64,000 nucleotides of DNA from a virus (IMGVR_UViG_3300003962_000013:1-64000); one strand, 5' to 3'. Counted from the first letter of the stretch, positions 4,141-62,782 are shown. The notes: generated by a model from the letters alone, not told the origin. Made by a program: numbers and translations.

Positions 4141-4494
4141 TTATTTTTTCCAAAGATCTTTTGAAACAAGTTGGGCTATAATATTATAATTAACTAAATC
4201 CATATATGAATCGGTTACAGATTCATTTTCTACTTGATTTTTTTTACTAAACAATACTAAATTTTTTAATCTATTCATTTTATCACTACAACGAATCCAA
4301 ATTGCTGTCAATGATAATTTTTTATCCTCAGGGCTTTCTAATCTAGTACCCATTGATATATTATCAACTCCATAATCTAGCATCTTTTGTGCGAATAAAG
4401 TATATTGCTCTTTCATTATTTGTTTATATCCTTGAGCAATAGTAGGATATTCTTTTTCTAGCTGTTCAATAACAGATATTTCTTCTTTAGCCAT
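4141..4494 (-). CDS. nucleotide-modification-associated domain 1 (DUF1599-like) protein
   Basis: KMLDYG, IRxxDKxxRL, DSYMDLVNY. Confidence 0.75.
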   Translation of the reverse strand: MAKEEISVIEQLEKEYPTIAQGYKQIMKEQYTLFAQKMLDYGVDNISMGTRLESPEDKKLSLTAIWIRCSDKMNRLKNLVLFSKKNQVENESVTDSYMDLVNYNIIAQLVSKDLWKK

Positions 4495-4921
4495 TTTTAA
4501 TAAGTTTTTTTATTTCTTTTTCATCTATTCCTTTTTTGATCAAAATATCTTCTACCCCTTCTTTTCTCAACAACGAAATATATTCATCTGCTTCACCTAA
4601 AGAACATTCAAAATATTCAGCTATATGTCTTGATAATTCAGGATTAATAGATTTTTTTAAATTTGATTTAATATAGGGAGAATAGGTATTTTTTGATTTG
4701 GGAATGAAATAACAATATACTTCATATAATTTTTTATTATTTTGAATATTAAGTCCTTGAACATAGTTTACTATTTCAACATATTTAGGATTCATTGATA
4801 AAAATTTATTAACCATAAAGTTGTTGAATTGTTTTTGTTGTTCAGGAGTAAATAAATCCCATGGTTTTTTAGTATCTATTATACTTTTAACCCAGTCAAA
4901 TATTGTAAATTGTTTATTCAT
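4487..4921 (-). CDS. clamp loader small subunit (T4 gp62-like)
   Basis: FMVNKFLSM, IAEYFECSLGEADEY; close to the gp44-like gene. Confidence 0.7.
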   Translation of the reverse strand: MNKQFTIFDWVKSIIDTKKPWDLFTPEQQKQFNNFMVNKFLSMNPKYVEIVNYVQGLNIQNNKKLYEVYCYFIPKSKNTYSPYIKSNLKKSINPELSRHIAEYFECSLGEADEYISLLRKEGVEDILIKKGIDEKEIKKLIKNG

Positions 4922-5486
4922 ATTTCCATCTAAATTTTCCGCATGTTTTAGTTCTTCCTTTTAAACAAGCACATAATGTTCCACTATCTAAATTATTATA
5001 TTTAGCTGCTGTTTTTATAGAATCATATCTTTTAATTTCATTCCAATTTAAATCAAATTGTATTATTGGTATAGAAAGAGCTTTGCTTATCATATTTTTA
5101 GATTTTTGAGATTTTTTCTTACCTAAATTATATTTATTACCTAATCTAAATTTACTCATTTTTTGTTTAGTCTCTTCACTTAAGGCTCCTTTTCCTTTTC
5201 CTAATCTACAATTTAAACCATTTTTTAAAACATCAAATTTTTTTCCTAAATATACTTCTTTTTCATCTAATTGGTCTAAAGAACATTCTTCAACTATTTC
5301 AAATATATGATTTTCAGGACCATATTTTTTAAGGGAATTATAAAGTTTAGTTTGTTGTTTACAATTAAATAAATTTAAATATTCATTAAATCTTCTTTTA
5401 ATATTTACACTTTGTCCAATATAAACTTTACCACTAGGACTTGTTACCTTGTATATTCCTATAATAGCGTTGTCGTGCTTTTTCAT
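4914..5486 (-). mobile_element. GIY-YIG homing endonuclease with NUMOD3/NUMOD1-type C-terminus (likely start ATG 5486)
   Basis: GIYKVTSPSGKVYIGQS; SEETKQKMS; C-terminal GKFRWKY. Confidence 0.9.
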
Positions 5487-5583
5487 CTTCTTGTTCTTTA
5501 TTTTTCCAATAATATTTTTTGGAAGCATTCGCTCTAGCTTTTTGCTTTTCTTCAGGTGTTTGATATTTTTTAATTCTTCCCAT
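5434..5583 (-). CDS. 49-aa basic leader ORF overlapping the GIY-YIG gene (not in ORF track)
   Basis: MGRIKKYQTPEEKQKARANASKKYYWKNKEQEDEKARQRYYRNIQGNKS*; paralog at 57932-58072. Confidence 0.75.
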   Translation of the reverse strand: MGRIKKYQTPEEKQKARANASKKYYWKNKEQEDEKARQRYYRNIQGNKS

Positions 5584-5587
5584 CAAT

Positions 5588-5631
5588 TATAAATATTGGA
5601 AAATTTTTAAAGATCACAAAAAAGATCACAA
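5588..5631 (-). promoter_or_regulatory. ATATTTATA promoter-like motif plus tandem direct repeat
   Basis: TATAAATAT at 5588-5596 (+); AAAGATCACAA at 5609 and 5621. Confidence 0.65.
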
Positions 5632-11963: not shown

Positions 11964-12012
11964 AATGTATTGTTTTATTATAAATATACATAGAGTCTGT
12001 CTTTTTCAATAT

Positions 12013-55225: not shown

Positions 55226-55810
55226 TTATTTTAATTGATTTGATTTATTTCTATTTCCTATTTGATTAGAACCATATTGTTCTGCTATTTCTGTTGTTTT
55301 AAAACGAGGCATTAAATTAGTATAGTGAAAACACTTTTGTTGTTCTTCTAATTTAGTTAAATCAAATTTTGAACAAGGTTTAATATGATCTATTTCCCAT
55401 ATTTTTCCATAATTATTCCAATCCATTTTATTGATGAATTGTTGTTCTAAATATAATTTAAATTCAATTACTGAGCATCCTAATAATGTTATAATAGATT
55501 TTGATTTTGAATTGGAATTAATTGCTTTAAAAAATCTAGATCTTAGATTATCAGAAATTCTAAATTGGATATTATTTTTTCTTTTATTGGATTTATAAAT
55601 ATTACTATATATAGTTTTTCTTTTTCTATTTATAATATTATATTTTTTAAAATATAATTTTTGTTGTTCTTTAATACTATTTTTATATTGTTTAGTACAT
55701 AATTTACATCTAGGTTCTTTCCCATCTGGAGAGTTTTTGTTATTTGAAAAATAATTATTCTCTTGTGGGATTTTACATTTATTACAAATTTTTGTATATA
55801 AATATTGCAT
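55226..55810 (-). mobile_element. HNH homing endonuclease
   Basis: CxxC; WEIDHIKP..NLMP..IGNRNKSN; paralog of 11196 and 57337. Confidence 0.88.
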
Positions 55811-55841: not shown

Positions 55842-55870
55842 AAAAAAGCTACCCATGTTAATGAGTAGCT
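55842..55870 (-). terminator. putative terminator after phoH
   Basis: AGCTAC..GTAGCT stem and U-run. Confidence 0.55.
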
Positions 55871-55918: not shown

Positions 55919-56602
55919 TTAATCTCGAAATTCATCATATACTTTTAAAATGTCTTCAACTATTTCATGTCGATGATTTTTCTTTAAAGTAACAATTCTA
56001 ACACCTTTGATTCTTTCTTCTAAACGTGGAAAAAAACCAATACCTGATTCTTTTTTGCTTTTTAAATCTACTTGAGCTAAATCACCACAAAATACTATTT
56101 TACCGCCTTTACCTAAACGACCTAACATCATTTCAGTTTGTGGTCCTGTAATATTTTGACATTCATCTACTATAACAAAACAATTAGGAAATGTTCTACC
56201 TCTCATAAATGCAAATGGTACAATTTCAATCTGATTTTCTTGAACCATTTTATCTATTTTTTCTTTATCATATAATAAATATAAATTAGAATATATTGGA
56301 GCTAGCCAAGGGTCCATTTTTTCTTTTAAATCACCTGGGAGGAAACCAATTTCTTCTTTTGATACAGTTGGACGCGTAATAACAATTTTATCCATTTCTT
56401 TTTTGAAAACCATATCTAAAGCAATTTGACATGCCACCAATGTTTTTCCTGAGCCAGCCATCCCTTTAAGTAATGTAACAGGATTTTCCAATATAATTTG
56501 TTTGGCTTCTTTTTGTTCTTCGTTAAGTGATAACTTGAACTTTATTTCTCCTTTTGGTTTTCGTTTTTCTTTGAAAACATCTTCATTATTGTTTTGAGAC
56601 AT
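55919..56602 (-). CDS. phoH: PhoH-like ATPase
   Basis: GMAGSGKT, GFLPGDL.EK, FMRGRTF, DECQN, GD..QVD. Confidence 0.95.
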   Translation of the reverse strand: MSQNNNEDVFKEKRKPKGEIKFKLSLNEEQKEAKQIILENPVTLLKGMAGSGKTLVACQIALDMVFKKEMDKIVITRPTVSKEEIGFLPGDLKEKMDPWLAPIYSNLYLLYDKEKIDKMVQENQIEIVPFAFMRGRTFPNCFVIVDECQNITGPQTEMMLGRLGKGGKIVFCGDLAQVDLKSKKESGIGFFPRLEERIKGVRIVTLKKNHRHEIVEDILKVYDEFRD

Positions 56603-56620: not shown

Positions 56621-57340
56621 TTAATTAAATTTTACTTTAACCAAAGGATCGATTCCTGCTTCGATATGCCATGTATTTTGTTGACATAAAGTAAAATCAT
56701 ATCTTTCGTCAAACGGAAGTATTAATTCTGCTTGGCTACCCCATCTTACTAAAGCAAATCGTTGGTTTTGAGAAAATAATTCATTTTGACCTAAAACAAA
56801 AGGACATATTACATTTACATCTTCATCTGCTATTAAAGTAATATAATAAGTGTAATCAAGTAGTGATGAATAAACTTCAACTAACATTCTTTCATTATAC
56901 TTCAGATAATCCATATTATCAGGATTAATAGCTTGATTCAATAAATCTTTTTCAACTGCGAGCATTGGTCTGTTTGTTGACTCAATAGGTTCTAGTTGTT
57001 TATAACGTACTACTCCTCCATAAGGAATACGAATTATATGAGGGTCATAAAATGATAAAAATACACCCACAACAAGTGAAGGTTTATTATATGTTTTATC
57101 ACCTATAACATCTTGTAAAGTGTAATTTATACCTTTTATCTCAACTACTTTATCTGATGGATTATTTATATGTTTTTGATACATTATAGTTCCATCACAA
57201 GGTGAGTAGAAATGTTCGTTATCAATATAATTAGGCCTCTGCGGATCGCGGAAAAAAAACTGTGTGCTAAGTTTGGTGAGATTCATTTTTTTACATTTGG
57301 AAATGTCTTCTTTAATCCACTGTTCTAACGATTTACTCAT
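56621..57340 (-). CDS. phosphatidylserine-decarboxylase-fold pyruvoyl enzyme
   Basis: FFFRDP.R, SPCDG, FLS.YDPH, WGS self-cleavage motif. Confidence 0.8.
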   Translation of the reverse strand: MSKSLEQWIKEDISKCKKMNLTKLSTQFFFRDPQRPNYIDNEHFYSPCDGTIMYQKHINNPSDKVVEIKGINYTLQDVIGDKTYNKPSLVVGVFLSFYDPHIIRIPYGGVVRYKQLEPIESTNRPMLAVEKDLLNQAINPDNMDYLKYNERMLVEVYSSLLDYTYYITLIADEDVNVICPFVLGQNELFSQNQRFALVRWGSQAELILPFDERYDFTLCQQNTWHIEAGIDPLVKVKFN

Positions 57341-57975
57341 AATATTTTATTTGATTTATTTCTATTTCCTATTTTATCTTTATAACCAAAAGATTGAGCA
57401 ATTTTAGTAGTCTTAAATATAGGTCTAGTATTCTTATAATTAAAACATTCTTTTTGTTGTTCTATATCTTCTAAATCAAATCTACTACAAGGTTTAATAT
57501 GATCTATTTCCCAAACTATCCCATGATTTTCCCAAGTAAATTCAGGGAGAAATTGTTGTTCTAAATATAATTTATAAAATATTATTGTACAACCTATAAA
57601 TTCTAAAGTATTATTTTGTTTAGTAATATTATTAGTATGTAAAACTTCTCTAATTCTATTACTTATATTTAATCTTAATTTAACTTGTTTATTAGAATGA
57701 TATTGTTTTACTCTATATTTATTTATCTTTTTTCTACTAATTAAATTATATTCTTTTTGGTAATTGTATTTTTCATAGTGAATTTTGTGATAATCATGTC
57801 TTGCTTTTTTATTTTCAGAATGATAATTACTACTATACCCTCTTTTACATCCCTTACATTGATTTTCTAAACCATCTTTAGTTCTATTATGTTTATAAAA
57901 ATTATTTAGTGTTTTAAATTCATTACAAACTCTACAATTCTTTTTTAGCTCTATCTCTTTGTCGTTGTTTTTCAT
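57337..57975 (-). mobile_element. HNH homing endonuclease (likely start ATG 57975)
   Basis: CRVC/CKGC; WEIDHIKP; IGNRNKSNK. Confidence 0.88.
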
Positions 57976-58072
57976 CACATTTTTCTTTGTTTTTCCAATA
58001 ATATTTCTTGGATGCCTTAGCTCTAGAAGCTTGCTTCTCTTCAGGAGTATTGTATTTTTTTAGGCGGCCCAT
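57932..58072 (-). CDS. 46-aa basic leader ORF overlapping the HNH gene (not in track)
   Basis: MGRLKKYNTPEEKQASRAKASKKYYWKNKEKCDEKQRQRDRAKKEL*; paralog of 5434-5583. Confidence 0.75.
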   Translation of the reverse strand: MGRLKKYNTPEEKQASRAKASKKYYWKNKEKCDEKQRQRDRAKKEL

Positions 58073-58080
58073 TTATCGGA

Positions 58081-58124
58081 TATAAATATGTTAAAAAGAA
58101 TAAAGATCAAAAGAAAGATGACAA
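58081..58124 (-). promoter_or_regulatory. ATATTTATA motif plus tandem direct repeat
   Basis: TATAAATAT at 58081-58089; AAAGATCAAAA at 58102 and AAAGATGACAA at 58114. Confidence 0.65.
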
Positions 58125-58125
58125 G

Positions 58126-59040
58126 TTATACAACTGATTTTTTATAATCTACATAATTCAAGTTTAAGATACAGCAACTGAGAAGTGCACCTGATTTCAT
58201 ATATTCACTTAAATTAAATATAATAGGTTCTAAACCTTCTTCTCCACATATCTTAGTTAAATTATCTATTTTAGTTTTTTCTAATTGGTAATCTTCTGAT
58301 TTTTTATCTAATTCAGAAATATTTGAAGCACATAAAATCATATTACCCAATCTAGCTGAATTAGTTATTCCACCAAATGCATCATCCTCACTTACGTCTA
58401 TAACCTTAGTATAGCATTTTAACTCACTTATCTCATCTGGAGTATATAAGGATGTACAAATCATAGTTTTCTCATTTGTTAACGGGAAAACTGAACAATC
58501 TAAATGGTATAAATAAGGTTCAACCATATGTAATCTAATAATTTTCATATCAAAATTTTGTTCCATCCAATCATAAGCTTCTAAGGTTGAACGTTGTCCA
58601 TAACCTCCAACATATATGTTATCTTTTAGATATTTAAGATCTGCAACACCTTCCCATTTAAATGGACAAATAAATGTTTCATACCCCATCATATCAAAAA
58701 ATTCCTTACCAATCCATTCTTCACCACGTCTTGGTTCTGAAGTATAATTAGATAATAACATTACATTACGATCTTTGATATGAGGTAAATGTAAACCTAA
58801 ATTAGCTACATATACTTGGTCTTGAAAATCACCTTTACTAGGTAATAAATAAACTAATCCTTGACCAGCCATAAAGCTATATAAATCCATGAATTGTTTA
58901 TAGGCTTTAGGTCTATTAATTTCTAATTCTTCAGGTTTAAGTTCTTCCATCCAAATATTATTTGGTTCTTTTGCGGATAAGGTGAATGGAAAATTCATTA
59001 CATAACTAGGTATGTTTAATTGTGATGGAGTTTCTTTCAT
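58126..59040 (-). CDS. pentein (amidinotransferase/arginine dihydrolase-like) enzyme
   Basis: DQVYVAN, R.GE, WEGVAD, YHLDC, KSGALLSC. Confidence 0.82.
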   Translation of the reverse strand: MKETPSQLNIPSYVMNFPFTLSAKEPNNIWMEELKPEELEINRPKAYKQFMDLYSFMAGQGLVYLLPSKGDFQDQVYVANLGLHLPHIKDRNVMLLSNYTSEPRRGEEWIGKEFFDMMGYETFICPFKWEGVADLKYLKDNIYVGGYGQRSTLEAYDWMEQNFDMKIIRLHMVEPYLYHLDCSVFPLTNEKTMICTSLYTPDEISELKCYTKVIDVSEDDAFGGITNSARLGNMILCASNISELDKKSEDYQLEKTKIDNLTKICGEEGLEPIIFNLSEYMKSGALLSCCILNLNYVDYKKSVV

Positions 59041-59117: not shown

Positions 59118-59147
59118 GAAAAAGAAAAGCCGAGCTGAGCTCGGCCT
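59118..59147 (-). terminator. intrinsic terminator after major capsid gene
   Basis: GCCGAGC-TGA-GCTCGGC followed by a U-rich tract. Confidence 0.8.
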
Positions 59148-59175
59148 TATCTTTTAACACTATTATGTTAATTTA

Positions 59176-60837
59176 TTATAGAGTTGTTAAACCACTAACA
59201 TAAATCTTACCATAGAATTCTGGTCTTAACATTTTCTTAGCGTAACGAGTCATTAAACCTTTACGTGGAGTGAAAGTTGATGGATCGTACACAAGTGGTG
59301 TCATGATCAATGGAATATATGGAGCGAAAACGGCACCTGATTCAAGGAATTGTTTACCTCTGAATCCCATCAATATTACGTTTTCAGTCATATAAGGGTT
59401 CTTATAAACTGTGTAACGGTTGTTGATAGCACCAACTTTTTGAACACCCATTGCAAATTCCATATTTGCAGCATCACCATTAGAGTTAGCAGCAAATCCT
59501 GGGATTGATTCTAAAACTGTTGCTACAGTTGGAGAACATACTAAGAAATTTGCACCACCTCTTAAAGTTAACTGGTGAATCTTGTTACTTACTTTTTGCA
59601 TTTTAGTACCAAGTGTTTGGAACCACTGACCTTGAGAGTTGTAGTAACCTAAACTTGCTGTGAAATCTGTACTACCTGCATTTAAAGTAGTGTTGTTAAC
59701 TACTGACCAATATTCAGTTGCTGCAGCAGCATCTTCAATTAACATATCTAAGATTTCCAAATCAATTTCCATTGAAATGTATTCACTCATGATGTTAGTT
59801 AATTCAGCTTCAGCATCAATGTTTTGGTAAGCATTTAAATCTTGAGCAAATTCAGGAGTCCATACTGCTTTTAATTTTTTAGTTTTAGCAGTGATAGCTT
59901 GAGATTGCATCTTGATATTGATTTCTGGAATTACAATTGTACTTGCACTTTGAGCATTCGGTACTGAGAATGAAGGAGCAGAAGTATCTTCGAAATCACC
60001 ACGGTTATTATCAACAGTAGCTTTATTGTAGTAAAGCGTACTTCCAGCAGAAGTACCAGAACCATTAGTTTCAGCTGTTGAAGCAGTGAAATAGAAAATA
60101 ATACTTGCAGCACCATCAAATGAAGTAAATGCTGGTAAAGATTTAGCTACTGTAGCAGCAGAACCAGAAGTTAATACGAATGCACGGATACCTTCGATAT
60201 CAAAGTTTGGAATACTACCTGTTGAAACTGTGAATGATTTAATTTCACCTCTAGCTGCAGAAGCTGATAAAGCTGAATCATACATTACACTAGCCCAAGA
60301 AGCTGTAGCTACTGTAGCACTAACTGTTGATGATGTTTGGTTTGTAGAATATGCGAAACGACCAGCTCCATAAAGACCACCTGTTGTATCAGTTGTTTGG
60401 AATGGGAAACGAGCGTTTGCGTTACGGTTACCATATAATGAGTTACCTGAAGAGAATGGGTTAACACTAGTTCCGTATTGGAAATCTAAGAAGAACACAA
60501 GACCTGAAGGTAAGTTCATTGGTTGAACTGAAACGAATTCTTTAGCTGCAATTTGACCAAATACTTTACGTACTAATGGTAATGCGATTCCAGCCCAGTT
60601 TTCAGATTGACCTACAGTAAATGTACCTGCAGATGTTCCAGCACCAGTTTGACTAGTTTCTACGACTAATTGTTTTGCTTGGTTTTCAAGAATAAGAGCC
60701 ATATTGTTACGCTCAACATCTGAACCAAATCCTTCCAAAAGACCTGTTTTAGACCATTTGGTAGCTAGTTTAGAAGCATCACTTTGAAGTGATTTCCATG
60801 GATTAGCTGATTCCAATAATGATTGAATTGAATTCAT
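59176..60837 (-). CDS. major capsid protein (T4 gp23-like)
   Basis: ILENQ, VQPMNLPSGLVF, KLKAVWTPEFAQDL, FAPYIPL, MTRYA. Confidence 0.97.
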   Translation of the reverse strand: MNSIQSLLESANPWKSLQSDASKLATKWSKTGLLEGFGSDVERNNMALILENQAKQLVVETSQTGAGTSAGTFTVGQSENWAGIALPLVRKVFGQIAAKEFVSVQPMNLPSGLVFFLDFQYGTSVNPFSSGNSLYGNRNANARFPFQTTDTTGGLYGAGRFAYSTNQTSSTVSATVATASWASVMYDSALSASAARGEIKSFTVSTGSIPNFDIEGIRAFVLTSGSAATVAKSLPAFTSFDGAASIIFYFTASTAETNGSGTSAGSTLYYNKATVDNNRGDFEDTSAPSFSVPNAQSASTIVIPEINIKMQSQAITAKTKKLKAVWTPEFAQDLNAYQNIDAEAELTNIMSEYISMEIDLEILDMLIEDAAAATEYWSVVNNTTLNAGSTDFTASLGYYNSQGQWFQTLGTKMQKVSNKIHQLTLRGGANFLVCSPTVATVLESIPGFAANSNGDAANMEFAMGVQKVGAINNRYTVYKNPYMTENVILMGFRGKQFLESGAVFAPYIPLIMTPLVYDPSTFTPRKGLMTRYAKKMLRPEFYGKIYVSGLTTL

Positions 60838-62185: not shown

Positions 62186-62782
62186 TTAAAAAAACTTTTT
62201 TCCTTTTGATATATTATCCGAAGCCCACAATGGTTGTAAATTAGTATAATGACACAATTTAATTAATTCTTCTTTATTTTTGGCACTTGATAATGGAATT
62301 ATGTGATCAATATGCCATTTACCATAATTTTCCCAATTCATACCTTCAGTAAATAAATTTTCAATATGTTTAACCCCAAATTTAAAATTACATCCCAATA
62401 ATTTCTCTGTTTTACCTTCTTTTTTCCATTTTGTTCTTCTAAAAGCATGATTAATTCTTACTCTAAGATTTGTTGAAAAATTATACAATGGATCTATTAA
62501 TTTTTTGTTTTTTTGATAATTTTTAATATATTCTCGTTTTTGAGATTGTGTTTTAGGGATGAATTTAGGTTGGGTGTTTTTATAAATTAAATATTTTTCT
62601 TTGTAATAATTAGGATTTAACTTATACCAATTTTTATGGTATTCGGAATTAGATTTTACCCAAATATTATTATTACCATATAAACATTCTTTACACCAAT
62701 ATGTATAACCATCTTTACTTTTTTTATCTTTATTAAAGTATTTTATATCTTTTTCTATTTTACATTTACTACAAATTTTCAT
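62186..62782 (-). mobile_element. HNH homing endonuclease
   Basis: CSKC; MNWENYG.WHIDHIIP..NLQPLW..N..K. Confidence 0.88.

Follow-up and report, generated by a model that had tools for sequence, protein, structure and literature searches.

Polyamine biosynthesis is a textbook example of convergent evolution, and few routes from arginine to putrescine are known. The window analysed here, a 64,000-nucleotide stretch (IMGVR_UViG_3300003962_000013:1-64000) from a Flavobacterium-type, T4-like phage, carries a gene for a pentein and a gene for a protein with the phosphatidylserine decarboxylase (PSD) fold, hereafter the PSD-like protein, which together would form one metabolic module leading from arginine to a diamine. 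That this module makes a polyamine-type amine from arginine is considered quite probable, and a route from arginine through ornithine to putrescine is the best-supported reading, with about even chances of being the correct one. The pair was not found described in the literature searched and is absent from the 2023 survey of viral polyamine enzymes (PMC9992855).

For the pentein, the closest described enzymes are ArgZ of Synechocystis (Sll1336) and AgrE of Anabaena (Alr4995; PDB 6JUY-6JV1 and 6LRF-6LRH). The fold, the Cys/His/Glu set, Asn71, the H-x-D motif, and an Asp together with two Arg are common to these enzymes and the phage protein, whereas their C-terminal ornithine cyclodeaminase/LOR-SDH part has no counterpart in the phage pentein, which is partnered with a decarboxylase instead. 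A virus-encoded conversion of arginine to ornithine and then putrescine, as predicted for the phage pair, has been described for the arginase and ornithine decarboxylase (ODC) of Klosneuvirus KNV1 (PMC9992855). The giant-virus enzymes are non-homologous, being a Mn-ureohydrolase and a pyridoxal phosphate (PLP)-dependent ODC of the alanine racemase (AR) fold, while the phage would use a Cys-hydrolase pentein and a pyruvoyl enzyme of the PSD fold. Giant viruses pair arginase with ODC as ornithine is limiting, and no arginase was found in phages by the same survey (PMC9992855); the phage pair may, by analogy, mirror the giant-virus one.

For the decarboxylase, several relatives in function or in fold have been reported. 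The ODC and arginine decarboxylase (ADC) enzymes that marine phages derived from AdoMetDC (PMC9992855, PMC10407285) are likewise pyruvoyl enzymes, phage-borne, active on ornithine or arginine, and recruited from an enzyme with another substrate, but they have the AdoMetDC fold rather than the PSD fold and no co-encoded ornithine-generating enzyme. PSD-fold enzymes that act on free amino acids and have no PSD activity also exist, namely Psilocybe PsiD and Aspergillus oryzae Ao-ADC1 (PDB 9JER/9JF5). Both self-cleave to a pyruvoyl form, as predicted for the phage enzyme, yet they are distant from it, with 10-15% identity, a length of ~440 aa, a eukaryotic origin and no pentein partner. The best curated matches are short-type phosphatidyl-/archaetidylserine decarboxylases (PF02666; PRK05305, TIGR00164), which have the D-V-H-x-N-R-x-P and G-S motifs and a similar size in common with the phage protein, whereas the latter differs in ~50 extra core residues, in lacking membrane attachment, and in belonging to a separate, mostly viral family.

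The pentein and its predicted substrate

The pentein, 304 aa long, consists of one domain and has no ornithine cyclodeaminase part. A sequence search of the PDB returned AgrE (1.9e-15) and ArgZ (1.3e-12) as sole matches; there was no Pfam match at E 0.01, PF02274 included, and PF19420 is present in its relatives. An AlphaFold2 (AF2) model built on 63 diverse relatives reached a predicted local distance difference test score (pLDDT) of 95.2. In the fold comparison, the N-domain of ArgZ (6jv0; Z 34.9, root-mean-square deviation 1.8 A, 264/273 residues, 24% identity) and AgrE (Z 34.7) came out 7 Z units ahead of the next family, represented by the succinylarginine dihydrolase AstB (Z 27.5). Dimethylarginine dimethylaminohydrolase (DDAH; Z 26-27, 27.1 at best), arginine deiminases (ADI; 23-26), amidinotransferases (22.7-24.3) and agmatine deiminases (20-21) followed.

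The active site of the pentein is made up of D74-Q-V-Y-V-A-N80, E130, H179-L-D181 and S288-C289. A phmmer alignment with AgrE places D74 on D65, N80 on N71, R104 on R90, E130 on E118, R150 on R139, H179 on H168 and D181 on D170, and the structural alignment, at a constant offset, places C289 on C264. The equivalents of the catalytic Glu118, His168 and Cys264, that is, E130, H179 and C289, are invariant in the 63 relatives, and the Cys/His/acid set is intact, as the original prediction had stated. In addition, D74, R104, R150, H179 and D181 are kept in 62-63 of the 63 phage-type sequences and in about 53-56 of the 56 bacterial orthologues, and position 80 is Asn in 62/63 and 53/56, respectively.

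In ADI and DDAH, the substrate carboxylate is held by two Arg and the amine by an Asp, while a second acidic residue, six positions after this Asp, holds the guanidine; the H-x-D motif of ADI goes with a plain guanidine and the H-x-K of DDAH with a methylated one, the Lys making room for the methyls (PMC11659421). The pentein has the amine-site Asp, both Arg and H-x-D, and carries Asn at the second acidic position, like ArgZ and AgrE. This residue, Asn71 in AgrE and Asp in deiminases and DDAH, is reportedly required for the second hydrolysis, and PDB 6juz is the N71S mutant of ArgZ trapped on an intermediate. Judged from these residues, the pentein would take an L-amino acid in free form whose guanidino group is unsubstituted, which points to L-arginine, and the product predicted from the dihydrolase signature is ornithine.

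The pentein had been compared to ArgZ rather than to deiminases or DDAH in the original prediction, and the Asn at the N71 position, the H-x-D motif and the lead of ArgZ and AgrE in the fold comparison all agree with that view. It is nevertheless filed as ArgZ-like and not as an ArgZ orthologue, because it is a single domain, scores far below the 450 bits asked of ArgZ-type proteins, and has family invariants of its own (P18, N27, N28, M31, E132 and H293). A DDAH identity was ruled out by H179-L-D181 in place of H-x-K, by N80 in place of Asp, and by the lower Z of that family (26-27 vs 34.9).

Were the pentein a deiminase, its product would be citrulline, the PSD-fold enzyme would turn this into N-carbamoylputrescine, and a host N-carbamoylputrescine amidohydrolase (NCPAH) would release putrescine, so that the pathway would meet that of agmatine deiminase. 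The N-carbamoylputrescine route is known from Campylobacter and Bacteroides host groups, agmatine-deiminase-like neighbours would yield the same intermediate, and by the curated scores a dihydrolase and a DDAH-type hydrolase are not told apart. However, Asn at the N71 position marks a dihydrolase, and the top fold matches, ArgZ and AgrE followed by AstB, are all dihydrolases. Moreover, no NCPAH gene was found in four near-complete phage relatives or among the recurrent bacterial neighbours, and we know of no citrulline decarboxylase. The citrulline route is, on balance, improbable.

The PSD-like protein and its coupling to the pentein

The PSD-like protein matches PF02666 with 73 bits, against a gathering score of 22. 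Its AF2 model (pLDDT 95.6) is most similar to E. coli PSD (Z 12.9), followed by PsiD (10.7) and the A. oryzae ADC (9jf5; 10.5). In profile comparisons with hhalign, the family matches E. coli PSD at 97.5% probability, while its E-value to PsiD is only 0.1, and Ao-ADC1 was not reported in the same search. The cleavage and catalytic residues R-W-G201-S202, D49, D99 and H101 correspond to those of E. coli PSD (D49 to D90, D99 to D142, H101 to H144, and G201-S202 to G253-S254), in which the triad and cleavage site have been defined (PMC7952604). The cleavage site and triad are invariant in 40 bacterial orthologues, and the pyruvoyl site claimed for this protein from the sequence alone is intact in all these residues.

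In E. coli PSD, contacts with the membrane and the acyl chains depend on three amphipathic helices at the N-terminus (residues 1-45), and those with the phosphate on Tyr137 and Ser166 (PMC7952604). The model of the PSD-like protein aligns only from E. coli residue 40 on, residues 1-39 being absent; no hydrophobic or transmembrane (TM) segment was detected (maximum KD19 1.20), and the mean hydropathy of the first 45 residues is -1.03, as compared with +0.40 in E. coli PSD. The protein is in these respects free of a membrane anchor, as had been supposed. In place of Tyr137 there is F94, and Phe occupies this position in at least 90% of the family and in 40/40 bacterial orthologues; PsiD, which acts on a free amino acid, likewise has Phe there. 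Ser166 falls on a variable position, where the alignment is less certain. The extra core residues of the family include a 12-residue insertion beside the active-site strand, with N123, M126 and E130 invariant.

A HMMER search over 1.84 billion representatives gave 362 clusters for this family at E 0.001, and since canonical PSDs were not reached among them, the PSD-like proteins constitute a small, separate family. In the Atlas, the family is mostly viral, and for the two proteins only the viral clusters 'PSD family' and 'amidinotransferase' were obtained there. The PSD-like protein could still be a genuine phosphatidylserine decarboxylase, with host membrane remodelling as its function and its place beside the pentein due to chance, which would agree with the PF02666 match, the PSD fold and the short-type PSD models as best curated matches. 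Such a role is very improbable considering the absent membrane helices and TM segment, the family-wide change of Tyr137 to Phe, the small and separate family, the tight, conserved linkage to the gene of an arginine enzyme, and the cyanobacterial loci described below, where a PLP amino-acid decarboxylase stands in for the PSD-like protein. On the strength of the sequence and model comparisons, the protein is a PSD-family member that does not seem built for phosphatidylserine, and it is predicted to act on a free basic amino acid, more likely ornithine than arginine.

Some homologues of the PSD-like protein (the metagenome proteins P0245 and P0377) are split by an intein that carries a LAGLIDADG nuclease. 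Two others are seemingly fused, P0248 to an ADP-ribosyltransferase domain and P0262 to the anti-CBASS protein Acb1, and these fusions are uninformative on function.

The gene pair was followed in 80 IMG/VR loci (63-90% identity) and in 80 bacterial genome loci in which the pentein is 46-53% identical. The two genes are adjacent in about 75 of the viral loci, where the pentein stop and the PSD-like start are usually 2-3 nt apart, and the order gp23-pentein-PSD-PhoH holds wherever the contig extends far enough. In the bacterial loci, the PSD-like gene adjoins the pentein gene in 68, mostly upstream of it. These loci come from Actinomycetota, Pseudomonadota, Campylobacterota, Acidobacteriota, Gemmatimonadota, Planctomycetota, Verrucomicrobiota, Latescibacterota, Cyanobacteria and others. 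Even in four distant contigs (L086, L096, L098 and L099), with PSD-like proteins of 25-32% identity, the pentein gene adjoins, in reverse order in two of them. Among phage genomes, about 39-40 Campylobacter Fletcherviruses carry both genes tens of kb apart, six Bacteroides phages carry them side by side, and one Xanthomonas phage has the pentein only. Three short contigs offered too little gene context, and neither a megablast of the region against phage records nor scans with the DAC19 pentein and two distant PSD-like proteins gave a match.

Both genes are under purifying selection, with ratios of nonsynonymous to synonymous substitution rates (dN/dS) of 0.08-0.24 against relatives. The original prediction had named a lack of co-occurrence in related phages as a refutation, and the two genes instead co-occur very strongly; the PSD-like gene is almost never found without the pentein in the viral and bacterial loci examined. 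That a decarboxylase is almost never without an ornithine-making enzyme would be explained by a sequential route from arginine to ornithine to putrescine.

The pairing also bears on the suggestion, made earlier from the window, that preQ0 is converted to an amidine, or more generally that the pair modifies 7-deazaguanine DNA or another base of the phage. queC is present in three Flavobacterium-type relatives, and a preQ1 derivative stands in place of every G in related Flavobacterium phages (PMC10516641). However, the pair occurs without queC in two complete genomes, those of Fletchervirus NCTC12673 and Bacteroides phage DAC19, bacteria of many phyla carry the pair with an exporter, and the pentein pocket appears built for a free amino acid. 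The link to preQ0 and 7-deazaguanine was rejected on the two queC-free genomes, and base modification by the pair is hardly to be expected. DpdL, the proposed decarboxylase of 7-carboxy-7-deazaguanine (CDG), is a QueD paralogue (PMC10516641) and unrelated to the PSD-like protein.

Polyamine-related neighbours and the predicted route

Several neighbouring genes point to polyamine metabolism. In five cyanobacterial loci, an AR-fold PLP decarboxylase of the ornithine/arginine/lysine/diaminopimelate family stands in place of the PSD-like gene, and this non-orthologous replacement suggests a basic amino acid as the substrate of the PSD-like protein. In L097 and L103 (the latter a 130-kb IMG/VR record), overlapping genes for an agmatinase-like protein and a deoxyhypusine synthase (DHS)/SpeY-like protein lie directly upstream of the pentein and PSD-like genes, and L108 has the agmatinase-like and SpeY/DHS-like pair only. 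Agmatine-deiminase-like genes occur in eight bacterial loci.

DHS/SpeY-like proteins, 50-60% identical to one another, are encoded by fifteen viral contigs (L100-L114, one of 464 kb), and genes of this kind lie at L097:1496-2506 and L103:7950-8990. A 2023 PNAS survey reported that it found neither SpeY nor DHS homologues among viruses and phages (PMC9992855), and the phage genes extend that published picture of viral polyamine metabolism. L097 also contains genes for a GMP-reductase-like protein, two SET-domain proteins, a dUTPase/dCTP-deaminase-like protein and a DnaE-type polymerase (L097:5729-6721 and the 4302-5601 region).

An exporter gene follows the pentein in 54 of the 80 bacterial loci (MATE in 40, ABC in 14), from which it seems that bacteria export the product. 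Nine Verrucomicrobiales loci continue after the pair with genes for a PotD/PotF-like binding protein and a hybrid sensor kinase with a Cache domain, an arrangement that resembles a make-export-sense circuit for an amine.

Exporters of this kind, as in natural-product clusters, would also suit a pentein that transfers the amidino group of arginine to an amine made by the decarboxylase, giving a guanidino product for export by bacteria or for tailoring by the phage. Fletchervirus GenBank records bear the label 'amidinotransferase', and a polyamine amidinotransferase, HsvA, exists in the superfamily. This identity was set aside on the residues, the lack of a Pfam match and the Z of 22.7-24.3, transfer chemistry lying beyond sequence evidence; against Z 34.9 for ArgZ, the amidinotransferases stay at 23-24, PF02274 is not matched, and the active site is that of a hydrolase that would consume the amidino group. 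The transfer reaction is, all told, an improbable use of the pentein.

In a survey of 12 bacterial genomes, several of them metagenome-assembled genomes (MAGs), the pair in Candidatus Glomeribacter gigasporarum (1.7 Mb) was found with no SpeA, AguA, aspartate aminotransferase (AAT)-fold decarboxylase, agmatinase or SpeE detected. In two of the MAGs, one of Caulobacteraceae and one of Verrucomicrobiales, the pair is present and the same enzymes went undetected, apart from a faint SpeE-like match in one. These three genomes fit a self-contained route, although the survey does not separate an ODC from an ADC, and its AR-fold LysA-like matches are untypable.

The predicted route would run as follows. 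The stand-alone ArgZ-type pentein would bind L-arginine through two Arg at the carboxylate and an Asp at the amine, and its active site suggests that the guanidino group would be fully hydrolysed to give L-ornithine, CO2 and 2 NH3. The PSD-fold protein would self-cleave at G201/S202 to form its pyruvoyl group, and this soluble decarboxylase, going by the gene coupling and context, would turn ornithine into putrescine. For the phage, the product would probably serve as a polycation in the infected cell, in DNA condensation and packaging or in translation, or feed into host spermidine or homospermidine steps.

A number of points weigh against this route. The pentein remains far below the curated cut-offs, with 76.3 bits vs 450 for the ArgZ-type model NF052232 and 78 vs 300 for the DDAH model NF045659, and the roles given to R104 and R150 are those of positional equivalents in DDAH and ADI. 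The changes E132V and H293N described in the next section could alter the activity of the window's own pentein. The PSD-like protein reaches 55 bits with curated PSD models that have cut-offs of at least 183, which is far below all curated equivalogs. To our knowledge, there is no PSD-fold ornithine decarboxylase. Among characterised PSD-fold enzymes, only the A. oryzae ADC acts on a basic amino acid (PMC12904898). No other polyamine gene was found in the near-complete phage relatives: spermidine synthase, homospermidine synthase (HSS)/carboxynorspermidine dehydrogenase (CANSDH)-type proteins, the AR-fold decarboxylase C-domain and CN-hydrolase were all absent from G000 and four near-complete relatives. 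Furthermore, SpeY strictly needs agmatine, not putrescine, and the decarboxylases encoded beside speY have proved to be ADCs (PMC13625781); the SpeY clusters of L097 and L103 and the agmatine-deiminase-like neighbours fit an agmatine-making decarboxylase at least equally well.

The last points belong to the main rival, in which the PSD-fold enzyme is an ADC that makes agmatine. Host or co-encoded enzymes, either agmatine iminohydrolase (AIH) and NCPAH or SpeY with a diagmatine ureohydrolase, would carry on to putrescine or homospermidine, and the pentein would act alongside on arginine or on an agmatine-derived guanidino compound. Besides the A. oryzae precedent, the agmatinase-like and SpeY/DHS-like module and the eight bacterial clusters with agmatine-deiminase-like genes, it can draw on Hoeflea, Amycolatopsis and an acidobacterial genome, which have AguA-like genes and no SpeA-type ADC above cut-off. 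However, it leaves unexplained a near-obligatory partner that appears built for a free amino acid. D74, R104 and R150 are kept and agmatine has no carboxylate, so that a pocket shaped to hold a carboxylate could not use agmatine. An ADC alone would suffice with host enzymes, yet the PSD-like gene is nearly always accompanied by the pentein, and Glomeribacter and the two MAGs have the pair with no agmatine-using enzyme detected. The agmatine route is accordingly rated unlikely, though it deserves more weight than the other alternatives. Of the two-step arginine route put forward in the original prediction, the branch through ornithine to putrescine is the one best supported by the residues, the gene coupling and the polyamine-related neighbours, and the branch through agmatine stays as its competitor.

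A broader interpretation, in which the route through ornithine combines a stand-alone dihydrolase with the first PSD-fold ODC and gene transfer has spread the genes among T4-like Bacteroidota and Campylobacterota phages and among bacteria of at least 10 phyla, is put forward tentatively. With the exporter of the bacterial loci and, in some, a polyamine-binding sensor, the amine might also be a secreted product or signal. If true, the known ways of making putrescine from arginine would grow by one, the PSD fold would gain a further activity in prokaryotes, and thousands of entries now annotated as 'phosphatidylserine decarboxylase', 'DDAH' and 'amidinotransferase' would be corrected. A conserved, capsid-adjacent gene pair of abundant aquatic and gut phages, Campylobacter biocontrol phages included, would also be explained.

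Locus layout, the HNH cassette and transcription signals

The source record of the window is an IMG/VR virus of 114,784 bp, ~71% complete and with ~30% GC, and the genes of the region all lie on the minus strand (Table 1). Terminator-like hairpins on both sides make the pentein, PSD-like and PhoH genes a single unit. In almost all of the 80 viral loci, a PhoH-like gene lies 3' of the PSD-like one, and PhoH was not among the genes of the bacterial pentein/PSD clusters examined.

Table 1. Position and assignment of the features around the pentein and PSD-like genes
Feature	Coordinates	Strand	Basis
gp23 major capsid gene	59176-60837	-	PF07068, 6.7e-76
Terminator-like hairpin closing the gp23 transcription unit	59126-59148	-	10-bp stem, 6 GC pairs, T run
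Promoter-like AT-rich spacer before the pentein gene, containing CTTGG...TATATTAA	59064-59096	-	Motif comparison with relatives
Pentein open reading frame (ORF) P0001, 304 aa, predicted L-arginine dihydrolase	58126-59040	-	ArgZ/AgrE matches by sequence and fold
47-codon leader ORF, overlapping the HNH ORF start	57932-58072	-	Part of the mobile cassette
HNH/endonuclease-VII-like homing nuclease gene	57337-57978	-	phrog_1035 4.2e-15; phrog_2340 5.5e-11
Mobile cassette (leader ORF and HNH gene) between the enzyme genes	57353-58179	-	blastn vs L005, L004 and L006
PSD-fold pyruvoyl decarboxylase ORF P0002, 239 aa, predicted soluble	56621-57340	-	PF02666, 3.4e-20
PhoH-like ATPase, third gene of the unit	55919-56602	-	PF02562, 3.4e-62
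Terminator-like hairpin ending the pentein-PSD-PhoH unit	55847-55870	-	10-bp stem, T run

The pair had been described as inserted behind the capsid gene, which does not agree with the conserved gene order of this phage group. A segment of ~830 bp that includes the HNH gene is swapped for ~168 bp in the close relative L005 and is common to the window and L004 (88% identity), so it is the HNH cassette, and not the enzyme pair, that is the insertion. The HNH gene is absent from L005, L006 and most other loci. From these comparisons, the cassette is mobile and has landed between the enzyme genes without destroying either; the ATG of the PSD-like gene overlaps the HNH stop codon. The view that the pair is interrupted only by this cassette is in line with the gap of 2-3 nt in other relatives. 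The cassette sits exactly between two normally translationally coupled genes, and a small unrelated ORF lies at the same pentein/PSD junction in L005 and L006; with unrelated insertions in these two and in the window, the junction would be an insertion hot spot.

The HNH-bearing lineage, with the window's pentein (P0001), P0003 and P0004, carries the changes E132V and H293N/G, although E132 and H293 are conserved in ~95% of all other phage and bacterial members. As they are changed together, the two residues may form an interacting pair. The pentein of the window compared with that of L004 has a dN/dS of 0.16, which shows selection to be still at work in this lineage.

Upstream of the pentein gene, the promoter-like region contains TATATATTAAG at 59074-59064, and a sigma-70 consensus scan matches 59094-59067 at 9/12 positions. 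Such matches are not above chance (31 observed vs 25.4 +/- 5.5 in shuffles), and the 'host-type' character given earlier to this promoter stays unproven. Among 59 distinct upstream regions of relatives, a hairpin of differing, unrelated sequence is located at the same place in 52, and a TATAT-N-TAT-type motif is found 15-70 nt 5' of the pentein ATG in 41, with 2.1 expected after shuffling, this motif being post hoc and derived from the very sequences counted. The comparison of relatives thereby supports a terminator followed by a promoter-like motif between gp23 and the pentein gene. In the upstream regions of L004-L083, a bipartite motif is common, TAGGTA-like and then TATAT-G/T-TATAG, ~25-35 nt before the pentein ATG, and it probably represents a phage promoter class.

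TATATNT motifs also precede nuclease genes of the window at 11988 and 16817. Two more endonuclease-VII/HNH-like genes (phrog_1035), at 55226-55810 and 62186-62782, flank the head-gene region, which brings the number to three within 8 kb, and a TATTTATAAT-type motif is found 5' of the HNH-like gene located after the PhoH terminator.

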